The position numbers were made by a program, and so were the translations under genes. Shown piece by piece: positions 4,170-20,644 of a stretch of DNA of 64,000 nucleotides. Source of the stretch: Clostridiales bacterium (GTDB lineage Bacteria; Bacillota; Clostridia; Christensenellales; CAG-138); NCBI GenBank assembly GCA_004558825.1, contig SFDB01000001.1, positions 137,427 through 201,426 on the forward strand, in the 5' to 3' direction. The stretch's first letter is position 1, and every line of letters starts with the position of its first letter. Under the pieces are notes generated by a model. That model was not told the DNA's origin. It worked only from the letters and a program-made list of their open reading frames with translations, and did not search any database.

Positions 4170-4781
4170 ATGGCCGTATACGGATTGACCGGCGGAATTG
4201 CCTCGGGTAAATCATGCGTTTCAAGGCGGCTCGCCGAGCTCGGCGCGATTATTATCGACGCCGACAAGATATCCCATGAAATAATGCGCTTTGACCGCGG
4301 CGCAGTATCGGCGGTACGCAAAGCTTTTGGGAACGGCGTTATCACTCCGCACGGCGATATCGACAGGCGCGCGCTCGGCGCGCTCGTATTCGCAGACAAA
4401 AGCAAGCTGGAGCTGCTCAATTCGATAATGCACCCGCTCATAACGGACGCCGTACTCTCTGAGCTCGCCAAAGCAAAAAAAAGCGGGGCGATCGTGATAG
4501 TTGATGCTCCGCTCCTGATACAAACGGGGCTTGATAAGCACACCGACGGCGTTATAGTCGTGTACGCCGACGTTGAGAACCGAGTAAAGCGCATAATAAA
4601 GCGCGACAATATTTCAGACGCCCGTGCGCGGGAGCGTATCGCATCACAGGAGAGCGATGATTTTCTTTTGAGTCACGCTTCGTTTGCGATCGAAAACAAC
4701 GGCTCGCTCGACGAGCTCATCAAAAAGACTGACGGGCTGTATGCTCTGCTCATGGAAAAGGCGGTAAATAATGATGAATAA
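4170..4781 (+). CDS. coaE: Dephospho-CoA kinase
   Basis: GLTGGIASGKS P-loop at the N-terminus, about 200 aa, in the classic position immediately after polA. Confidence 0.93.
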   Translation: MAVYGLTGGIASGKSCVSRRLAELGAIIIDADKISHEIMRFDRGAVSAVRKAFGNGVITPHGDIDRRALGALVFADKSKLELLNSIMHPLITDAVLSELAKAKKSGAIVIVDAPLLIQTGLDKHTDGVIVVYADVENRVKRIIKRDNISDARARERIASQESDDFLLSHASFAIENNGSLDELIKKTDGLYALLMEKAVNNDE

Positions 4782-6408
4782 AAATACATTTGCAAGGCTT
4801 ATCGCGTCGCTGCTCATTGCATCCGCGCTCATCGGCTGCATTGGATGCGCCGCAGACCGTTCGGGCGCCGAGCCGACGGCAACGCCGCTCCTTATGCCCA
4901 CCCCTACCCCGCAGATACAGCCCGTACCCGGCGGCGAACTCATAATGCCCATACCCGCCAACGCCGAAGCTCACAACCCGCTCACCGTTTCAAACAGGGA
5001 AATGCTTAACATGTATTCGCTCATATTCGAGGGGCTTGTTTATCTTGACGAAAGTGGAATACTTGCGCCGATGCTCGCGGAAAACTGGTCGTGCGACGAA
5101 ACGGGGCGCGTGTGGACTTTTAACATTCGCCGGGGCGTCAAATGGCACAGACTTGCCTCCGAGCTTACAGCCGATGACATAATTTATACCGTCAATATAA
5201 TCAAAAATATGGACGGCGGATCGTACTACAGCTATAACGTATCAAAAATAGAAAGCATCGAAAAAGCAGACGCATACACCGTCCGCATGACGATGACGCA
5301 CGCCGGCATAAGCCCCGTTACGCTTTTAACTTTCCCGATAATATGCGCGCAAAGCAGCATGGACGATATGCCCGTCGGTACCGGCCCCTACGCGATAACC
5401 TCACAAAGCGGAGACACTATAACGCTTGAAGCCAATAAGCTTTGGTGGAAACAGACGCCGTATCTTGAGAGGATAACGCTAAAGGAGCGTGACAACACCG
5501 AGAGCGAGCTTGCTTCCTTTGCGGCGGGACAGCTTAACATGGTTTTCACATCGGTGCTGCACGCAGGACGCTATCGCGACGAAGGCAAAACAAGCGTTAT
5601 CGATATAATGACGCAGACTATGGAAACGCTTCTTATAAACCATTCATCGACCATACTTGCTTCGCAGGATGTCCGCAAGGCGCTCGCCTACGGGATAGAC
5701 AGAAGCGACATAATTTCAAACGTCTACATGAATAAAGCCGTCGCATGCGACGTACCGATAGCGCCCGACTCCTACGCATACGATTCCAAATACAAAAAGT
5801 ACGACTTTAACCGTTCGTATGCACTGTCGCTGCTGTCGCATCTTGGCTGGGAAGACGTAGACGACGACGGCATACTTGAAAACAAAGCCGCGCAGTCTGC
5901 CGAGCTCAAGCTCAAGCTCCTCGTAAGCACGTCGGCCGACAACACGCTCCGTGCCGATGCGGCAAAGAGGATTGCGGCGCAGCTTCTCGAAATGGGCATA
6001 GAGGTTGAGATAAAAGAAGTGCCGTTCGCCACGGAGGCGGCGGACGATGAGGACTTTATATCGCTCCTCGCGGACGGGGACTTCGACCTCGCGCTTGCCG
6101 GGTTCAATCTCGGGCGTGATCTCGACCTGACGCAGTATGTCTCGTCGCTCGGTGCGCTCAATTACGGCAAGTACTACGGCGTCAAGCTCGACGCGCTTGC
6201 AAAGGATCTCGCTCAGGCGGCCGACCAGACGGCGGCGCGCGATGCGGCGGCTCTGTTTCAGGAGGAATTTATCGATTCGCTCCCGTTCATAGTGCTTTAT
6301 TTCAGGCAGAGCAGCGTAATCTATTCTTCTAAAATCAAGGGTGTTTCCTCGCTCCGAGAGCCTGACGTCATGCTCAACGCATATAAATGGTATACAAATT
6401 GGAAGTAA
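4771..6408 (+). CDS. ABC transporter substrate-binding lipoprotein, family 5 (peptide/nickel type), orphan
   Basis: Signal peptide with lipobox (LIASALIGC), Pro/Thr linker, then a family-5 SBP-like body (..MLNMYSLIFEGLVYLDESG..LAENW..). The start overlaps the coaE stop by 11 nt. No permease or ATPase gene is adjacent. Confidence 0.85.
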   Translation: MMNKNTFARLIASLLIASALIGCIGCAADRSGAEPTATPLLMPTPTPQIQPVPGGELIMPIPANAEAHNPLTVSNREMLNMYSLIFEGLVYLDESGILAPMLAENWSCDETGRVWTFNIRRGVKWHRLASELTADDIIYTVNIIKNMDGGSYYSYNVSKIESIEKADAYTVRMTMTHAGISPVTLLTFPIICAQSSMDDMPVGTGPYAITSQSGDTITLEANKLWWKQTPYLERITLKERDNTESELASFAAGQLNMVFTSVLHAGRYRDEGKTSVIDIMTQTMETLLINHSSTILASQDVRKALAYGIDRSDIISNVYMNKAVACDVPIAPDSYAYDSKYKKYDFNRSYALSLLSHLGWEDVDDDGILENKAAQSAELKLKLLVSTSADNTLRADAAKRIAAQLLEMGIEVEIKEVPFATEAADDEDFISLLADGDFDLALAGFNLGRDLDLTQYVSSLGALNYGKYYGVKLDALAKDLAQAADQTAARDAAALFQEEFIDSLPFIVLYFRQSSVIYSSKIKGVSSLREPDVMLNAYKWYTNWK

Positions 6409-14478: not shown

Positions 14479-16458
14479 ATGAACACGATAGATAAGCTGT
14501 CGATAGACACTATAAGGATTTTGTCCGCGGAAGCGATACAAAAGGCAAACAGCGGCCATCCGGGTATGCCCATCGGCGCCGCACCCATTGCGTACGCAAT
14601 ATGGAAAAACATGAATCATAATCCTAAGGATCCGTCATGGCGCGGAAGGGACAGGTTCATTCTTTCCGCAGGACATGCCTCTATGCTCGAATACTCGCTT
14701 CTCCACCTCTATGGCTACGACGTATCGATGGACGACATAAAGCAGTTCCGTCAGCTCGGCAGCAAGACGCCCGGCCATCCCGAATTCGGCCATACATGCG
14801 GCGTCGAAGCAACAACAGGCCCGCTCGGTCAAGGCTTCGCAATGGCTGTGGGTATGGCTATTGCCGAATCGCACCTTGCGGCGAAATTCAACCGCGCCGG
14901 CTTTAATGTCGTCGATAATTATACATATGTCCTCACAGGCGACGGCTGCATGGAGGAAGGCGTTTCGGGCGAAGCCGCATCTCTCGCCGGCACGCTCAAG
15001 CTTAATAAGCTTATCGCCGTATACGACCGCAACCGTATAACCATTGAAGGCAGCACCGACCTTGCATTCAGCGAAAACGTAGCGGCACGCTTCGGCGCCT
15101 ACGGCTGGCAGGTCATAACGGTAGACGACGGAAACGACCTCGATTCCATCGAAAACGCTCTGCATCTTGCAAAGCGTCAGGATAAGCCCACGCTCATAAT
15201 TGTTGACACCAAGATAGCATACGGTTCGCCAAAGGAGGGTATGAACAGCGCCCACGGCTCGCCGCTCGGCGAAGAGAATATAAGGCTCATGAAGCAAAAG
15301 CTCGGCTTTGATTACGACGAGCCCTTCACCGTCCCCGCGCAAGTATACGCTAATTTCTCACGTCTCGCCGAAAAATGCGCCGAGCCGCAGTCAGCGCATG
15401 CACAGCTCATGAAGGCCTATAAGACGGCCTTCCCGGCGCTTTACAAGGAATGGGAAGAATACCACGCGCCCGTCGACGTCGAGTCGCTCATAAATGACAG
15501 GGAATTTGCGGAGTTCGATGAAAAAGTCGCTACGCGGGCCGCCTCGGGCAAGATACTCAACCTGCTCGCGAGGCATATCCCCAACATGTTCGGCGGCTCT
15601 GCCGATCTTGCGCCGTCGAACGTGACCGAAATAAAGGGCGAAGGCTATTACAGCCCCGATTCGCCCAAAAACCGCAACATCCATTTCGGCATACGCGAGT
15701 TTGCAATGGCGGCCATATGCAACGGCATCATGCTATACGGCGGACTCCATGCATACTGCGCAACGTTCCTCGTGTTCGCTGACTATCTTAAGCCTGCCCT
15801 GCGTCTGAGCGCCCTGATGAAGCTGCCCGTCATATACGTCCTCACGCACGACAGCATAGGCGTAGGTGAAGACGGCCCGACGCATCAGCCCATAGAGCAG
15901 CTTGCTTCACTTCGCGCAACGCCCAATACGCGCGTATTCAGGCCGGCCGATGGCAAGGAGACCTCCGCCGCATATATGAGCGCGCTCAACGCCGACTGCC
16001 CGACTGTTCTCGCGCTCTCGAGGCAGGGACTTCCGACACTTGAGGCGACAAGCTTTGAGGCAATGCGCGGCGGATATGTTATAAAGGCTGCGGACGGCGC
16101 TCCCGATGTGATACTCATAGCTTCCGGCTCCGAGGTCGAGCTGGCCCTTAAAGCCGCGCCGGTGCTTGAAGAAAAAGGCATCCGCACGCAGGTCGTAAGC
16201 ATGCCCTGCACGGAGCTTTTCGATGCCCAGAGCGATGAATACAAGGAAAGCGTACTGCCCAAGGCGGTCAGAGCGCGCGTTTCGATTGAAGCCGCTTCAA
16301 GCTTCGGCTGGCAAAAGTATACGGGCCTTGACGGCGCAAACGTTTCGCTCGACACGTTCGGCGCTTCGGCTCCGGCAGGCAAGCTGTTCGAGCTTTTCGG
16401 GTTCACCGTTCAAAACGTCGTCGACACGGCAATCCGTACAGTCGATTCGTTAAAATAA
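14479..16458 (+). CDS. tkt: Transketolase
   Basis: 659 aa. ..[14 protein letters not shown].., the thiamine-diphosphate motif [13 protein letters not shown], and ..[16 protein letters not shown].. Confidence 0.97.
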
Positions 16459-16482
16459 TCCGCGGCATAAGCAAATTCACCG

Positions 16483-16518
16483 AAAAGCGCCCGCATATCA
16501 AACACTCGGGCGCTTTTT
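16483..16518. terminator. Bidirectional terminator between convergent tkt and flippase genes
   Basis: AAAAGCGCCCG (16483-16493) pairs with CGGGCGCTTTT (16507-16517). A/T runs lie on both sides. Confidence 0.65.
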
Positions 16519-17832
16519 AAGCGTCCTTCTCATAATTATGGCCGCATTCATGGCAAGCCGCAGCCCATCGCCTATTATCATACCAAGCATGTAACCGTAG
16601 ACGTTGAGCGCCGGCATTGCAGTCAGCGCCCATATCAGCAAGAATTGAATCGCTTCCCCGCAAACGGCATTAAGAAGCACGCGCTTATGCTCATATATGC
16701 CGTTCATAACGCTTACAGTTACGGCAAGAAAATACCCTACTATCGTTTTTATGCCTATCAGTGCCGCAAGCTTCGGCGTCAGTGTTTCTGAAAACAGTAT
16801 CTCGCAAAGCCTCGGCGCGAACGGTATCACCGCCGCCGTCAGCAGCCCGAAGGCCCCGGCAGTCAAAAAAGCTTTGCGGACGCGATTCCTTATGCACCGT
16901 ATATCGCCGTTTTCATGGCTTGCCGATATTTCGGGCATAAGCACCGCGCAAAGCGCACCCACGAACGCCGCGGGCAAACACATAAGCGGCTCGGCCATGC
17001 CCGATATCCTCCCTAACATTCCTACGGCGCTTTCAGCGGAAAATCCCGCTTTTTTAAGCCTTGCCGGAAATACTACCGTTGACGCCGACGACAGAAGCGT
17101 CGCAGAAGCTGACGTTGCCACGGACGGAGCGGCTATCGCCATAAAACGCTTCCTTGAAAAGACCTTTTGCGAACAAAGACGGCTTTTTTCCGTTCTCAGT
17201 GCCTTCATGTACGACACAGTCAAAAACGAAACGCTGAATATTTCACTGAGCGTCATCCCGAGCATTATCAAAAATGCCGACAGCCTATGCTCTCCAATTC
17301 CAAAGCTTAAAAGCAGAAGTATCACGAGCGAGTATCTTATCGTTTGCTCTATAAACTCGGACAGTGACGCGATTTTCACCCTGTTCATGCCGAAAAGCGC
17401 CGATTTCATCACGTTTTCAACACCCGTAAGCAATATGCATATAGGTATCAGCCAAAGAGCGTCGGCCGTTCTCATGTCGCAAAGCACGTCGGCGGCAATC
17501 TGCTCGCGCAGCGCAAGCACCCCAAGCGCAAGCGGCAGCAGCAGCGACATCAGCACGCACAGCGCAAACCTTACCACCGAATCTACGCCCGCTACGCCGC
17601 GCTTCACATACACGCGAGCGCTCATACCTGTCACGGCGACGGATATGCCGGAAACGCAGACCGAATACAGCACCGAATATACCTGCATCGCGAGCGCGCT
17701 CACACCCATGCCTTCCGCCCCTGCAAGCCGGCCGAGCGCTATTCTGTACGCAAAGCCCATCAGCTGCAGCCCCATATTCGATGCCGACAGCATGAGCCAG
17801 CGCTTTGTAAGGGAATTATGCTTGTTGCGCAT
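16498..17832 (-). CDS. MOP-superfamily polysaccharide/lipid-II flippase (SpoVB/MurJ-like)
   Basis: About 12-14 TM polytopic protein with N-terminus ..GLQLMGFAYRIALGRLAGAEGMGV.. typical of SpoVB/Wzx-type flippases. Start at MRNKHNS (GGAG 8 nt upstream). Confidence 0.8.
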   Translation of the reverse strand: MRNKHNSLTKRWLMLSASNMGLQLMGFAYRIALGRLAGAEGMGVSALAMQVYSVLYSVCVSGISVAVTGMSARVYVKRGVAGVDSVVRFALCVLMSLLLPLALGVLALREQIAADVLCDMRTADALWLIPICILLTGVENVMKSALFGMNRVKIASLSEFIEQTIRYSLVILLLLSFGIGEHRLSAFLIMLGMTLSEIFSVSFLTVSYMKALRTEKSRLCSQKVFSRKRFMAIAAPSVATSASATLLSSASTVVFPARLKKAGFSAESAVGMLGRISGMAEPLMCLPAAFVGALCAVLMPEISASHENGDIRCIRNRVRKAFLTAGAFGLLTAAVIPFAPRLCEILFSETLTPKLAALIGIKTIVGYFLAVTVSVMNGIYEHKRVLLNAVCGEAIQFLLIWALTAMPALNVYGYMLGMIIGDGLRLAMNAAIIMRRTLKKRPSV

Positions 17833-17972
17833 ATTAAGACTCCGATTCGTGCAAACCATTTACGTTTATATGTTTATCTATATTTGCTCCGTCACCCTAT
17901 AATGACGGCAAAAATCCGTGCTTTTTCGTCAACGCCTCCGCAGATCCGCAACATCATAAATTGATTTTTCTG

Positions 17973-18001
17973 TTGACCTGAATGAATTTTGACTATATAC
18001 T
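17973..18001 (+). promoter_or_regulatory. Sigma-A-type promoter for the oadB leader
   Basis: TTGACC (17973-17978), 17-nt spacer, TATACT (17996-18001). Confidence 0.55.
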
Positions 18002-18199
18002 CTTTAGCGTGAGAGGGAGTAACAGGCATGCCGCGTGAACGGCGTGCGGCATACAGCGTCATGACGGCGCAAGCCCGCTGTATGCCCAGGAAACGCTTGC
18101 GGTTCTGCGGTAAGACTTTTGCTTTGTTTATGCATCGCAAAAAGTCTTTTTTTGTAATGTATACTTTCTCGCCGCCATCAAAAATACACTGAATAAGAG
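18002..18199 (+). promoter_or_regulatory. Structured 5' leader (candidate riboswitch/attenuator) upstream of oadB
   Basis: Hairpins ATGCCGC/GCGGCAT (18028-34 / 18046-52) and ACAGCG/CGCTGT (18053-58 / 18076-81), followed by an intrinsic terminator before the start codon. Confidence 0.45.
18112..18153 (+). terminator. Leader (attenuator) terminator upstream of oadB
   Basis: AAGACTTTTGC (18112-22) pairs with GCAAAAAGTCTT (18137-48) with one bulge, followed by a run of T to 18153. It lies about 50 nt upstream of the oadB start. Confidence 0.65.
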
Positions 18200-19318
18200 G
18201 TGATTTATTTGCAAGATTTTCTCGGGCTCTTTTCAAATGTCACGAACTTTACATGGCAGCAGGGGCTTATGATACTTGTCGGCGCAACGCTCATTTATCT
18301 TGCCATTAAGAAAGAGATGGAACCCGCTCTGCTTCTCCCCATGGGGTTCGGCGCGATACTCGTGAACCTGCCTTTCGTTAACACTGAAGCCATCGAAACG
18401 CTTTTTAACGCAGGCATAGCAAATGAACTGTTTCCGCTGCTTCTTTTCATAGGGATAGGCGCAATGATTGACTTCGGTCCGCTGCTCTCTAATCCGAAAA
18501 TGCTCCTTTTCGGCGCTGCGGCACAGTTCGGCATATTCTTTACGCTGATAATGGCGCGGCTTATCGGCTTCGAGATTAACGATGCAGCCTCTATCGCCAT
18601 CATAGGCGCCGCCGACGGCCCAACGTCGATATACGCCGCAAATTATCTAAAGTCGAATTACAGCGGCGCAATAATGGTCGCGGCCTATTCGTACATGGCG
18701 CTTGTCCCGATAATACAGCCGCCCGTTATACGCATGCTTACGACTAAAAAAGAGCGGCTTATCCGTATGCCGTATAAGCCGAGCGCCGTCTCGTCAACAA
18801 CGCGCATACTTTTCCCGATAATCGTAACCATACTCGCGGGAGTGGTCGCCCCTAAGTCCGCCGAATTGATAGGCTTCCTCATGTTCGGCAACCTCATAAG
18901 GGAATGCGGCGTTCTGAAATCGCTCAGCGAAAGCGCACAGAACCAGCTTGCGAACCTTGTCACGCTCATGCTCGGAATATCGGTCGCTTTCAAGATGCAG
19001 GCGGAGATGTTTGTGCGCATCGAAACGCTCGCAATAATCGCGCTCGGCCTCGTCGCGTTCGTCTTCGACACGGCGGGCGGCGTGCTTTTCGCCAAGCTTA
19101 TAAATATTTTCGCTAAAACAAAGGTTAATCCCATGATTGGCGCTGCGGGCATATCCGCATTCCCGATGTCGTCGCGCGTAGTGCATAAGATTGGACTTAA
19201 AGAGGATCCGAATAATTTCCTGCTCATGCATGCGGCAGGCGCGAATGTCAGCGGCCAGATCGCTTCCGTCATCGCAGGCGGGTTGCTTATATCGCTCGTG
19301 GAATCCATGATTGGCTGA
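18200..19318 (+). CDS. oadB: Na+-translocating decarboxylase beta subunit (OadB/GcdB/MmdB family)
   Basis: 372 aa polytopic protein; ..LIYLAIKKEMEPALLLPMGFGAILVNLP.. matches the family N-terminus. The true start may be TTG at 18209 (AAGAGG 8 nt upstream). Confidence 0.92.
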   Translation: MIYLQDFLGLFSNVTNFTWQQGLMILVGATLIYLAIKKEMEPALLLPMGFGAILVNLPFVNTEAIETLFNAGIANELFPLLLFIGIGAMIDFGPLLSNPKMLLFGAAAQFGIFFTLIMARLIGFEINDAASIAIIGAADGPTSIYAANYLKSNYSGAIMVAAYSYMALVPIIQPPVIRMLTTKKERLIRMPYKPSAVSSTTRILFPIIVTILAGVVAPKSAELIGFLMFGNLIRECGVLKSLSESAQNQLANLVTLMLGISVAFKMQAEMFVRIETLAIIALGLVAFVFDTAGGVLFAKLINIFAKTKVNPMIGAAGISAFPMSSRVVHKIGLKEDPNNFLLMHAAGANVSGQIASVIAGGLLISLVESMIG

Positions 19319-19329
19319 GGAGGCGGAAC

Positions 19330-19560
19330 ATGAACATTTTAGACAGATTGTCGCTCAATGAAAGCGAAGAGCTCACCGCACCTGCGGATGAGACAAGTGC
19401 GACCGCATCGATAGAACTCGAATGGAAACCTGACACGCTTCAGGATTCGCTCATAATGACGGGTAAAGGCATGATGGGAGTATTCGTAGTCATAGGCGCG
19501 ATATCCCTTATGATATTCATAATGAATAAGCTGTTCAAGGGCAAGCGCGGCAAAGCATAA
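19330..19560 (+). CDS. OadG-family small membrane subunit of the Na+-decarboxylase
   Basis: 76 aa. Acidic N-terminus, then one TM (GKGMMGVFVVIGAISLMIFIMNKLF) resembling the OadG/gamma-subunit helix. Begins 11 nt after oadB. Confidence 0.7.
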   Translation: MNILDRLSLNESEELTAPADETSATASIELEWKPDTLQDSLIMTGKGMMGVFVVIGAISLMIFIMNKLFKGKRGKA

Positions 19561-19578
19561 TGCACCGACACGATGCAC

Positions 19579-19618
19579 GCGCAAAACCCGCCGAGGATAT
19601 CCTCGGCGGGTTTTGCGC
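19579..19618. terminator. Terminator after oadG (perfect 18-bp palindromic stem)
   Basis: GCGCAAAACCCGCCGAGG, loop ATAT, CCTCGGCGGGTTTTGCGC. The GC core is followed by TTTT, and the symmetry could let it act in both directions. Confidence 0.8.
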
Positions 19619-19774
19619 AACAAAAAAACAAAAAGGACCGCTTCTCTCGAAGCAGCCCTTCTTTTTAGCAGTATCGGTTGAAAGGGGGGATAACCACTGC
19701 TTTTCACTTGCAGCTTTAGTATAGCACCCGTTTCACGCCTATATATCACAGAATTGTTACAATATACTTAAACT

Positions 19775-20644
19775 TTAATTATTTTTTGTTTGCGAAACGC
19801 ATTTAAGCTCGACGCAAACGATGTTCGGCCTGTTAAACAGCCTTATTGGGCATACGCTGTTTCCAAGCCCGCGGCTCACAACAAGAGTCGTGCCGTTCAC
19901 CTGATACGCCCCCGCCGTATACTTTGGGAAAAAGCCCTGGTTCGGCGCAAACAATCCGCCTATCCACGGCAGTCTGAATTGTCCGCCATGCGCGTGGCCG
20001 CTGAACACCACATTTATGCCGAACCTCGCATACGAGTCTATCAGCTCGGGACGATGCGCAAGCAGCATCTTAAAATTGCTCGACCCATCGCCTATCGCAC
20101 GTTTTATATGAAATTCGGCCAATCCCGAATGATAGTCAGCCGTCTGAGTCTCGCCTCGCGGATCCGAAATACCTATAAGATCTGTCGTGTCGCCGTTGCG
20201 TTCGATTGTTGTCACTGCATTCTCGAGCATCGTCACGCCAATATCGAGCATTTGCGCGCTCAGCGCTTCGTATTTATCCGGTACGCTCATCTCGTGGTTG
20301 CCGCTGACATAGTACACCGGCGCAAGCTTCACCGCTCCGCGCACGAACTCCATCGCCTTTTCAATATTCGTGTGTCTGGCATCAATAAGGTCGCCCGTGA
20401 TCACGATAATATCCGGCCGCAAGTCGCATACGGCGTCAAGCAGCCTTGACTGCCCCTTGCCGAAGCGCTTGTTGTGCAAATCGGATATATGCACTATCCT
20501 GAAGCCGTCGAAGCCGTCAGGTACGTCTTGACTCGCATATTCAATGGATGTTACCGTCAAATCGTTGGCCTGCCAACAAACGAACACAGCCGATGCTGCA
20601 ATCAACGCGGCGATCGCAGAAATGATCATTGTCCCCTTCCTCAT
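19775..20644 (-). CDS. Membrane-anchored metallophosphoesterase (calcineurin-like, YkuE-like)
   Basis: N-terminal TM, then motifs ..IVHISDLH.., ..ITGDLID.., ..GNHE.., ..SGHAHGG.. Confidence 0.88.
   Translation of the reverse strand: MRKGTMIISAIAALIAASAVFVCWQANDLTVTSIEYASQDVPDGFDGFRIVHISDLHNKRFGKGQSRLLDAVCDLRPDIIVITGDLIDARHTNIEKAMEFVRGAVKLAPVYYVSGNHEMSVPDKYEALSAQMLDIGVTMLENAVTTIERNGDTTDLIGISDPRGETQTADYHSGLAEFHIKRAIGDGSSNFKMLLAHRPELIDSYARFGINVVFSGHAHGGQFRLPWIGGLFAPNQGFFPKYTAGAYQVNGTTLVVSRGLGNSVCPIRLFNRPNIVCVELKCVSQTKNN

Follow-up and report, generated by a model that had tools for sequence, protein, structure and literature searches.

A predicted yybP-ykoY-family metal riboswitch upstream of sodium-pump decarboxylase genes in gut Clostridia

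We analysed a 64-kb window of the Clostridiales bacterium assembly GCA_004558825.1 (contig SFDB01000001.1; coordinates are window positions throughout), in which the gap at 17973-18208 separates a divergent Polysacc_synt-family gene (16498-17859, minus strand) from an OAD_beta gene, oadB, encoding the beta subunit of a Na+-translocating decarboxylase. It is likely that the leader of oadB is a divalent-metal riboswitch of the Mn2+-type yybP-ykoY family, and that it works as a transcriptional ON switch for oadB and the oadG-like gene behind it. An earlier, sequence-only reading of this DNA had proposed a riboswitch with a terminator-based expression platform, which is borne out by a conserved and covarying aptamer that overlaps the terminator. 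The same reading held that the leader was not assignable to a known riboswitch class; it can now be placed in the yybP-ykoY family by the signatures of its loops L1 and L3, by a covariance model of its relatives (R2) and by the match of several relatives to the Rfam family SSRC10.

Conservation of the leader upstream of orthologous oadB genes, a check proposed with the sequence-only reading, was found in 33 of the 80 closest OadB loci, where the same RNA immediately precedes oadB and is flanked by a promoter and a terminator. These loci were taken from one-genome-per-species contigs, mostly metagenome-assembled genomes of Oscillospiraceae, Christensenellales and other Clostridia, and encode proteins 67-84% identical to that of the window; individual related loci are given below by L numbers. 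In one further OadB locus (L021:1113-4300), the RNA heads a gene for a PiT (PHO4) transporter, a DUF47 (PhoU_div) gene and then oadB-oadG. The motif was seen by direct reading of the upstream regions, and blastn of the leader against the related loci returned the 3' arm of the terminator only. The consensus of the element is AAAAG-GGAGUA-(4 bp)-hairpin-(helix)-GCGUCAAUAC-hairpin-CCGC-(helix)-UUAAA-(4 bp)-AAGACUUUU, preceded immediately by promoter-like hexamers. An equivalent terminator is present in 32 of the 33 relatives, with AAGACUUUU as its 5' arm. One oadB-linked copy (L010:2877-3011) has no terminator, and AAAAG beside its ribosome-binding site (RBS) could pair with the CUUUU of the outer helix P1.1, which suggests a translational expression platform.

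Two covariance models were built from these relatives. The first (R1), made from 11 of them with a structure annotated by hand, recovered all oadB-linked copies of the element plus 30 of the 80 loci that a DNA-pattern scan of metagenomes had brought up; these 30 were true copies, and as the pattern was designed from oadB leaders the census of gene associations is biased to oadB. The second (R2) was built from 34 genome loci, with the window excluded. In the pooled alignment of 58 distinct sequences, which was fitted to the model, 93.8% of the pair cells in the six helices hold standard pairs, compared with 35-50% after the partners have been displaced by 1-3 columns. Both partners have changed in 23 of the 26 pairs, and the observed values were not reached in any of 500 column shuffles. 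RNAalifold on a plain MAFFT alignment also recovered P1 and the terminator, while P2-P4 were lost to register shifts.

In the outer helix (AAAAG/CUUUU), 26-29 of 29 sequences form the pairs (98% of cells), and L005 (A-U for G-C), L061 and L069 carry compensatory changes. All four pairs of P1.2 covary among the relatives (GC/AU, CG/AU/UA and others), as do all five pairs of P2. GGAGUA of L1 and the C-A of L3 are invariant in 57 of 57 distinct relatives, and the AGA on the 3' side of L1 is kept in 54-55 of 57. At the position of P4 most relatives have a linker of five nucleotides (nt), UNAAA (UUAAA or UGAAA), and inserts like that of the window occur in L005, L011, L036 and L070. Human-gut metagenomes yielded four strain variants of the same species, and all four keep the element. 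Three of them have no substitution in the riboswitch, and the changes in the fourth (L202) either preserve pairing (G.U to A-U in P1.1, A-U to G.U in P3.1) or lie in loops. The 41-nt spacer behind the terminator differs in all four strains and is more variable than the riboswitch. We also noted a conserved pyrimidine-pyrimidine mismatch in P3.1 (alignment A2 columns 42/92; U.C in L033, C.U in L015) immediately beyond the four pairs of this helix that lie closest to L3, and this mismatch may be part of a tertiary contact surface.

According to published work on the yybP-ykoY family, the 5' side of L1 carries a conserved G-G-A, the AGA of its 3' side and the C-A of L3 are invariant, and the L3 adenine contacts Mn2+, as in C40-A41 of the L. 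lactis structure, where A41 N7 is involved (PMC6649816). The window copy carries all of these nucleotides (Table 1), the C-A pair being its putative metal contact. It also aligns to all the helices of the P1/P2/P3 junction with P4 or a linker, and the 3' strand of its P1.1 overlaps the terminator. R2 matches the window at 18009-18122 with 37.1 bits (E 4e-7), with L1, P2, P3, L3 and AAGA in register, and this is the single significant match in the 64-kb window (runner-up 11.9 bits, E 1.3). R1 had scored 24.1 bits there with a mis-aligned interior because of the insert at the P4 position, and R2 mended the alignment.

Statistical similarity to accepted members of the family was found as well. 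With R2, the validated E. coli mntP riboswitch is detected at 23.2 bits (E 7.6e-5), in the position that the Rfam family model RF00080 assigns to it. In addition, three relatives match the SSRC10 model (RF02617) over its full length with 37.6-42.4 bits and E 7e-6 to 3e-4, below its gathering score of 56 (L033:2844-2961, with 37.6 bits and E 7e-6; L107:1228-1352; L118:3218-3342); the window copy gave no match to SSRC10 at E <= 10. SSRC10 was described in S. pyogenes as a transcript that has a promoter and a terminator of its own and precedes the gene of a 'putative calcium transporter' (PMC3675131). The streptococcal mgtA riboswitch, which precedes a P-type ATPase gene, is a yybP-ykoY member with a three-way junction in which UNAAA replaces P4 (Martin et al. 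2019, PMC6649816). SSRC10 carries the L1, L3, UGAAA and GAGAC signatures of this riboswitch and, judged by them, looks like a riboswitch that Rfam has filed as a small RNA ('Gene; sRNA'), apart from RF00080. The Rfam scan that had been proposed with the sequence-only reading yielded these sub-threshold SSRC10 matches in relatives and nothing for the window: RF00080 and all of the 4227 Rfam models, T-box and other leaders and attenuators included, were tried as a class assignment for the window leader, and none matched either the whole window at gathering thresholds or the leader at E <= 10.

Turning to the window copy itself, the promoter recognised in the sequence-only reading was confirmed: it agrees with the consensus at 10 of 12 bases and ranks first among the promoter-like sites within 16400-20000. 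Judged by its position, transcription would start at about 18008, immediately 5' of P1.1. The 211-nt leader is more stable than 200 of 200 dinucleotide shuffles (z = -4.2). Two stems had been read in it by eye. The second (18053-58/18076-81) is real but makes up the inner part only of the 11-bp P3.1. The first (18028-34/18046-52) is possible as a 7-bp pairing, but it competes with P3.1 and is not conserved, and both the conserved architecture and the minimum-free-energy fold form P2 in its place. The insert at the P4 position is predicted to fold into a small hairpin (18088-91/18103-06 and 18094-95/18100-01) with a CUUG loop.

Table 1. Features of the oadB leader and the downstream genes (window positions).
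Feature	Position	Strand	Basis or remark
Promoter, sigma-70-type	-35 TTGACC 17973-78; 17-nt spacer; -10 TATACT 17996-18001	+	Sequence
P1.1 5' strand (switch helix), GUGAGAG	18009-18015	+	Pairs with 18116-18122; R2 alignment
L1 5' side (metal-site loop), GGAGUA	18016-18021	+	Conserved motif
P1.2 5' strand, ACAG	18022-18025	+	Pairs with CGGU 18108-18111, one A.G mismatch
P2 hairpin, CAUGCCG/CGGCGUG, loop CGUGAA	18027-18046 (18027-33/18040-46)	+	R2 alignment
P3 arm	18048-18086	+	P3.1, L3 and P3.2; R2 alignment
P3.1, 11 bp	18048-58/18076-86	+	R2 alignment
L3 bulge, UCAUGAC	18059-65	+	Contains C18060-A18061, putative metal-contact pair
P3.2, GGC/GCC, GCAA loop	18066-68/18073-75	+	R2 alignment
Insert at P4 position, 21 nt	18087-18107	+	Small hairpin, predicted only
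P1.2 3' strand, CGGU	18108-18111	+	R2 alignment; covariation in relatives
L1 3' side, AAGA (AGA is the invariant part)	18112-18115	+	Doubles as base of terminator 5' arm
P1.1 3' strand, CUUUUGC	18116-18122	+	Same sequence as upper terminator 5' arm
Intrinsic terminator	18112-18153	+	Sequence and folding
RBS of oadB, AAGAGGTG	18195-18202	+	Sequence
oadB, Na+-translocating decarboxylase beta subunit, 369 amino acids (aa), TTG start	18209-19318	+	Pfam OAD_beta E 6e-152
oadG-like small membrane protein, 76 aa	19330-19560	+	OAD_gamma weak, 16.6 bits, below cut-off

The terminator with its run of T was likewise confirmed where the sequence-only reading had put it, although the distance to the RBS is about 41 nt and not about 50 as given there. 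Its 5' arm, AAGACUUUUGC at 18112-18122, pairs with the 3' arm, GCAAAAAGUCUU at 18137-18148, with one A bulged, and a run of seven U spans 18147-18153. The hairpin alone has a free energy of -12.6 kcal/mol. A simple terminator scan with a loop limit of 3-8 nt did not list it because the loop is longer than this limit. Positions 18112-18122 serve twice, as the 3' strands of L1 and P1.1 and as the terminator's 5' arm, so that closure of the aptamer and formation of the terminator are mutually exclusive. By nearest-neighbour energies the ON secondary structure has -38.0 kcal/mol and the OFF structure -48.3 kcal/mol, which is 10.3 lower; P1.1 and P1.2 together contribute 2.7 kcal/mol to the folded core, and the terminator contributes 13.0. 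With a terminator state so much more stable and a P1 so weak, the default is termination (OFF), and read-through therefore requires additional stabilisation of P1.1. In the yybP-ykoY family this stabilisation is supplied by metal-dependent docking of L1 and L3 (PMC6649816, PMC11672702). The overlap of P1.1 with the terminator corresponds to the ON-switch design of the family, and from this design we infer the direction of regulation.

On this model, RNA polymerase would initiate at about 18008 and the aptamer would form a junction of P1 (P1.1-L1-P1.2), P2, P3 (P3.1-L3-P3.2) and a small P4. When metal is abundant, it would sit between the loops L1 and L3, so that the arms dock and secure the weak P1.1. 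The closed aptamer would then sequester the 5' arm of the terminator, the terminator would be blocked, and transcription would read through into oadB. Without metal, P1.1 would be too weak, the terminator would form and the transcript would end at about 18150-18153. Transcription of oadB-oadG would thus be expected to increase at high cytoplasmic metal. For the RNA of the window, the ligand (Mn2+, possibly Ca2+), the docking, the transcription start and the termination site are predicted by analogy with the published biochemistry of the family.

Several points weigh against this assignment. RF00080 (gathering score 45) matches neither the window copy nor its relatives, even when thresholds are relaxed. 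However, the validated E. coli mntP riboswitch (strain K-12; L201:962-1058) scores 41.6 bits with RF00080 (Rfam 15), which is also below the threshold, and for this reason the silence of the model on the clostridial copies carries little weight. The window copy is divergent, with 37 bits compared with 60-94 for most relatives; it has an A.G mismatch in P1.2 and three G.U pairs in P1.1 (GUGAGAG/CUUUUGC), and its P4 is predicted only. The covariation counts come from an alignment that had been fitted to the model. Ligand binding, termination and an effect on expression are predictions for all oadB-linked copies, the window RNA included. Finally, OadB has no known role in Mn2+ homeostasis, and oxaloacetate decarboxylase genes of other Clostridia are controlled by a riboswitch of another class, Na+-I (PMC9337991), which makes control by Mn2+ physiologically puzzling.

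Among the alternatives, it is unlikely that the riboswitch mainly reports Ca2+ or an alkaline cytoplasmic pH and not Mn2+ excess, with increased Na+ pumping as part of a response to cations or pH. Na+ cycles are tied to pH homeostasis and to Na+/Ca2+ exchange, and PiT, which belongs to the regulon of one relative (L021), transports metal-phosphate complexes. Both Mn2+ and Ca2+ elicit a response of the streptococcal three-way-junction member (PMC6649816, PMC11672702), although Ca2+ is the weaker inducer in vivo in Streptococcus (PMC11672702). Alkaline pH raises the level of transcripts with yybP-ykoY elements in E. coli and B. subtilis (PMC8632737), but a pH response has been documented for alx-type members only. 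Sequence does not separate these possibilities from one another.

We consider it quite unlikely that the same fold and ON mechanism serve, in the oadB-linked copies, to sense Na+ or another cation that would fit a Na+ pump. The target is a Na+ pump with all its Na+-site and catalytic residues kept, and a ligand shift within one fold, marked by odd gene associations, has precedent. In other Clostridia oxaloacetate decarboxylase genes are under Na+-I control, Na+ is also sensed by variants of the Li+ class (PMC9337991), and yybP-ykoY members are not strictly Mn2+-specific (PMC6649816). However, the metal-site nucleotides of L1 and L3 do not vary and agree exactly with the Mn2+ class, and those of the oadB-linked copies are indistinguishable from those of copies linked to P-type ATPases in related bacteria, which argues for a single ligand for all copies. 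Models of Na+-I (DUF1646), Na+-II and the Li+ riboswitches (nhaA-I, nhaA-II) gave no match to the window leader or to L033 at E <= 10. The riboswitch is scattered over the OadB tree and does not mark a special clade. The sequence-only reading was right in expecting an RNA of the ion-responsive kind, while the Na+, Li+ or dicarboxylate ligands that it considered find no support: the metal site has the nucleotides of the Mn2+ class, and the Na+ and Li+ models gave no match. Doubtful, too, is the boldest proposal, that in many gut Clostridia the beta and gamma module of a Na+ pump is gated by a divalent-metal riboswitch and, in its radical form, that the oadB-linked copies are a cryptic class for Na+ or another cation within the yybP-ykoY fold.

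It is very improbable that the leader contains no ligand sensor and is instead a leader-peptide or protein-mediated attenuator, or that it codes for one of the two open reading frames (ORFs) present here (54 aa, sense, 18028-18192, plus strand; 114 aa, antisense, 17892-18236, minus strand): the ATG at 18028 is placed 8 nt behind GAGGGAG, its ORF runs through the terminator, and the antisense ORF is long, but what looks like a Shine-Dalgarno sequence is the riboswitch's own invariant L1, no Pfam family and, in 200 related loci, no syntenic protein-level conservation was found for either ORF, and the variation among relatives tracks base pairing and not codons. We therefore rejected both the leader-peptide and the antisense-ORF readings, in keeping with the sequence-only reading, which had noted the antisense ORF as lacking a recognisable family and had named its expression and conservation as a finding that would speak against a riboswitch.

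With the yybP-ykoY assignment preferred, the element can be compared with known systems. Like the S. pneumoniae mgtA subtype, it has L1 GGGAGUAG opposite (G/A)AGAC and L3 CGUCAAUAC with the invariant C-A, UNAAA instead of P4 in most relatives, and a terminator that follows the aptamer directly and uses the 3' strand of P1.1 as its 5' arm, as expected of an ON switch. The same aptamer also precedes P-type IIA ATPase genes in L140, L147 and L155, the same kind of ATPase as downstream of mgtA-type copies and a known target class. Unlike that subtype, the hosts here are gut bacteria of the Oscillospirales and Christensenellales and not streptococci, the main downstream gene is oadB-oadG and not an ATPase gene, the scores of the relatives with SSRC10 fall short of its gathering score, and the window copy has its 21-nt insert, a probable P4, in the place of UNAAA.

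The four-way-junction Mn2+ riboswitches (E. coli mntP and alx, L. lactis yoaB, B. subtilis yybP and ykoY; RF00080) share with it the loop-loop metal site, the P1.1 switch helix and metal-activated expression, which is predicted here, as well as a helix in the P4 position, predicted in the window copy and seen also in L005, L036 and L070. The E. coli members act through translation and Rho-dependent termination and not through an intrinsic terminator. They also differ in that RF00080 detects none of the clostridial copies, and the genes known downstream of them encode Mn2+ exporters and not a subunit of a Na+-pumping decarboxylase. The known yybP-ykoY regulon comprises the Mn2+ exporters MntP, the TerC family and P-type ATPases (PMC8632737). 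The Na+-I riboswitch (DUF1646 motif; White et al. 2022, PMC9337991) is similar in having oxaloacetate decarboxylase genes of the pycB/oadB type as targets in some Clostridia, in being a terminator-based ON switch and in having an elemental ion as ligand. However, its ligand is Na+, its aptamer is unrelated, with two extended hairpins P1 and P2, and cmscan gave no match to it here at E <= 10.

The two genes behind the leader form a short operon. The sensible start of oadB is the TTG at 18209, 6 nt after the strong RBS AAGAGGTG, and this start precedes the N-terminal FTWQQGLM motif common to homologues; the frame itself opens at a GTG at 18200, inside the RBS. Public gene calls start oadB at an internal ATG, which gives 349 aa and loses the conserved N-terminus (window 18209-18269; L202-L205). 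When the window OadB was aligned to Salmonella OadB (6IVA), D203, Y229, N373, G377, S382 and R389 were all found to be kept, and the protein therefore resembles a normal Na+-translocating beta subunit. We considered whether this OadB might be a neofunctionalised paralogue and rejected the idea in view of these catalytic and Na+-site residues and of the patchy distribution of the riboswitch across the OadB tree. The 76-aa protein encoded next is probably the gamma subunit (oadG-like), as its GKGMLGIF-type motif occurs directly after oadB in nearly all related loci. The exact OadG sequence is found in 1384 blocks of the sequence collection that was searched. A strong terminator at about 19588-19620, after oadG, closes the operon. 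The interval 19588-19663, between oadG and a minus-strand metallophosphoesterase gene, holds two convergent terminators: the plus-strand one is CCGCCGAGGATATCCTCGGCGG, and the minus-strand one has a 15-bp stem. No further decarboxylase subunits were found by tblastn in the 64-kb window.

The riboswitch is absent from the clade in which oadB lies inside a decarboxylase operon, behind a biotin-carrier gene. The Faecousia loci L072 (~4650-5870) and L080 (~4839-6140) are of this kind, having no riboswitch and oadB behind a biotin-carrier gene, and both have a second oadB paralogue shortly downstream that is about 45% identical to the window OadB.

Most of the copies found precede oadB, as may be expected from a scan designed on oadB leaders. 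A copy with its own terminator also lies upstream of an SPFH/Band 7 (HflK-like) membrane protein gene, with a spacer of about 120 nt (L115:497-1860). The literature that we searched contained no link of yybP-ykoY or Mn2+ riboswitches with oadB, gcdB, mmdB or sodium pumps, and regulation by yybP-ykoY elements appears to be unreported for oadBG, for a PiT transporter and for an SPFH protein. As a reason for placing a Na+ pump under such control, our best guess is that a larger Na+ gradient could drive Na+-coupled extrusion of Mn2+ or Ca2+, or that the operon takes part in an alkaline or Mn response, an alkaline response being reported for some members of the family. It may also be that the ligand preference of these copies has shifted.

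In conclusion, the leader belongs to a well-studied riboswitch class, and in this respect the finding is a largely ordinary one; its association with these genes is apparently undescribed. The predicted regulon includes oadB-oadG in dozens of species, occasionally PiT-DUF47 or SPFH genes, and the expected P-type ATPases. The comparison also reveals a blind spot in Rfam, in that RF00080 misses the clostridial set and the streptococcal subtype is filed as a small RNA, so that annotation pipelines under-count the riboswitch in gut Firmicutes. If the gating by metal is true, sodium bioenergetics in these bacteria would be tied to Mn2+/Ca2+ or alkaline stress. The element offers a lead on how anaerobes might connect their sodium cycle with Mn2+/Ca2+ stress, or else on a shift of ligand within the yybP-ykoY family.

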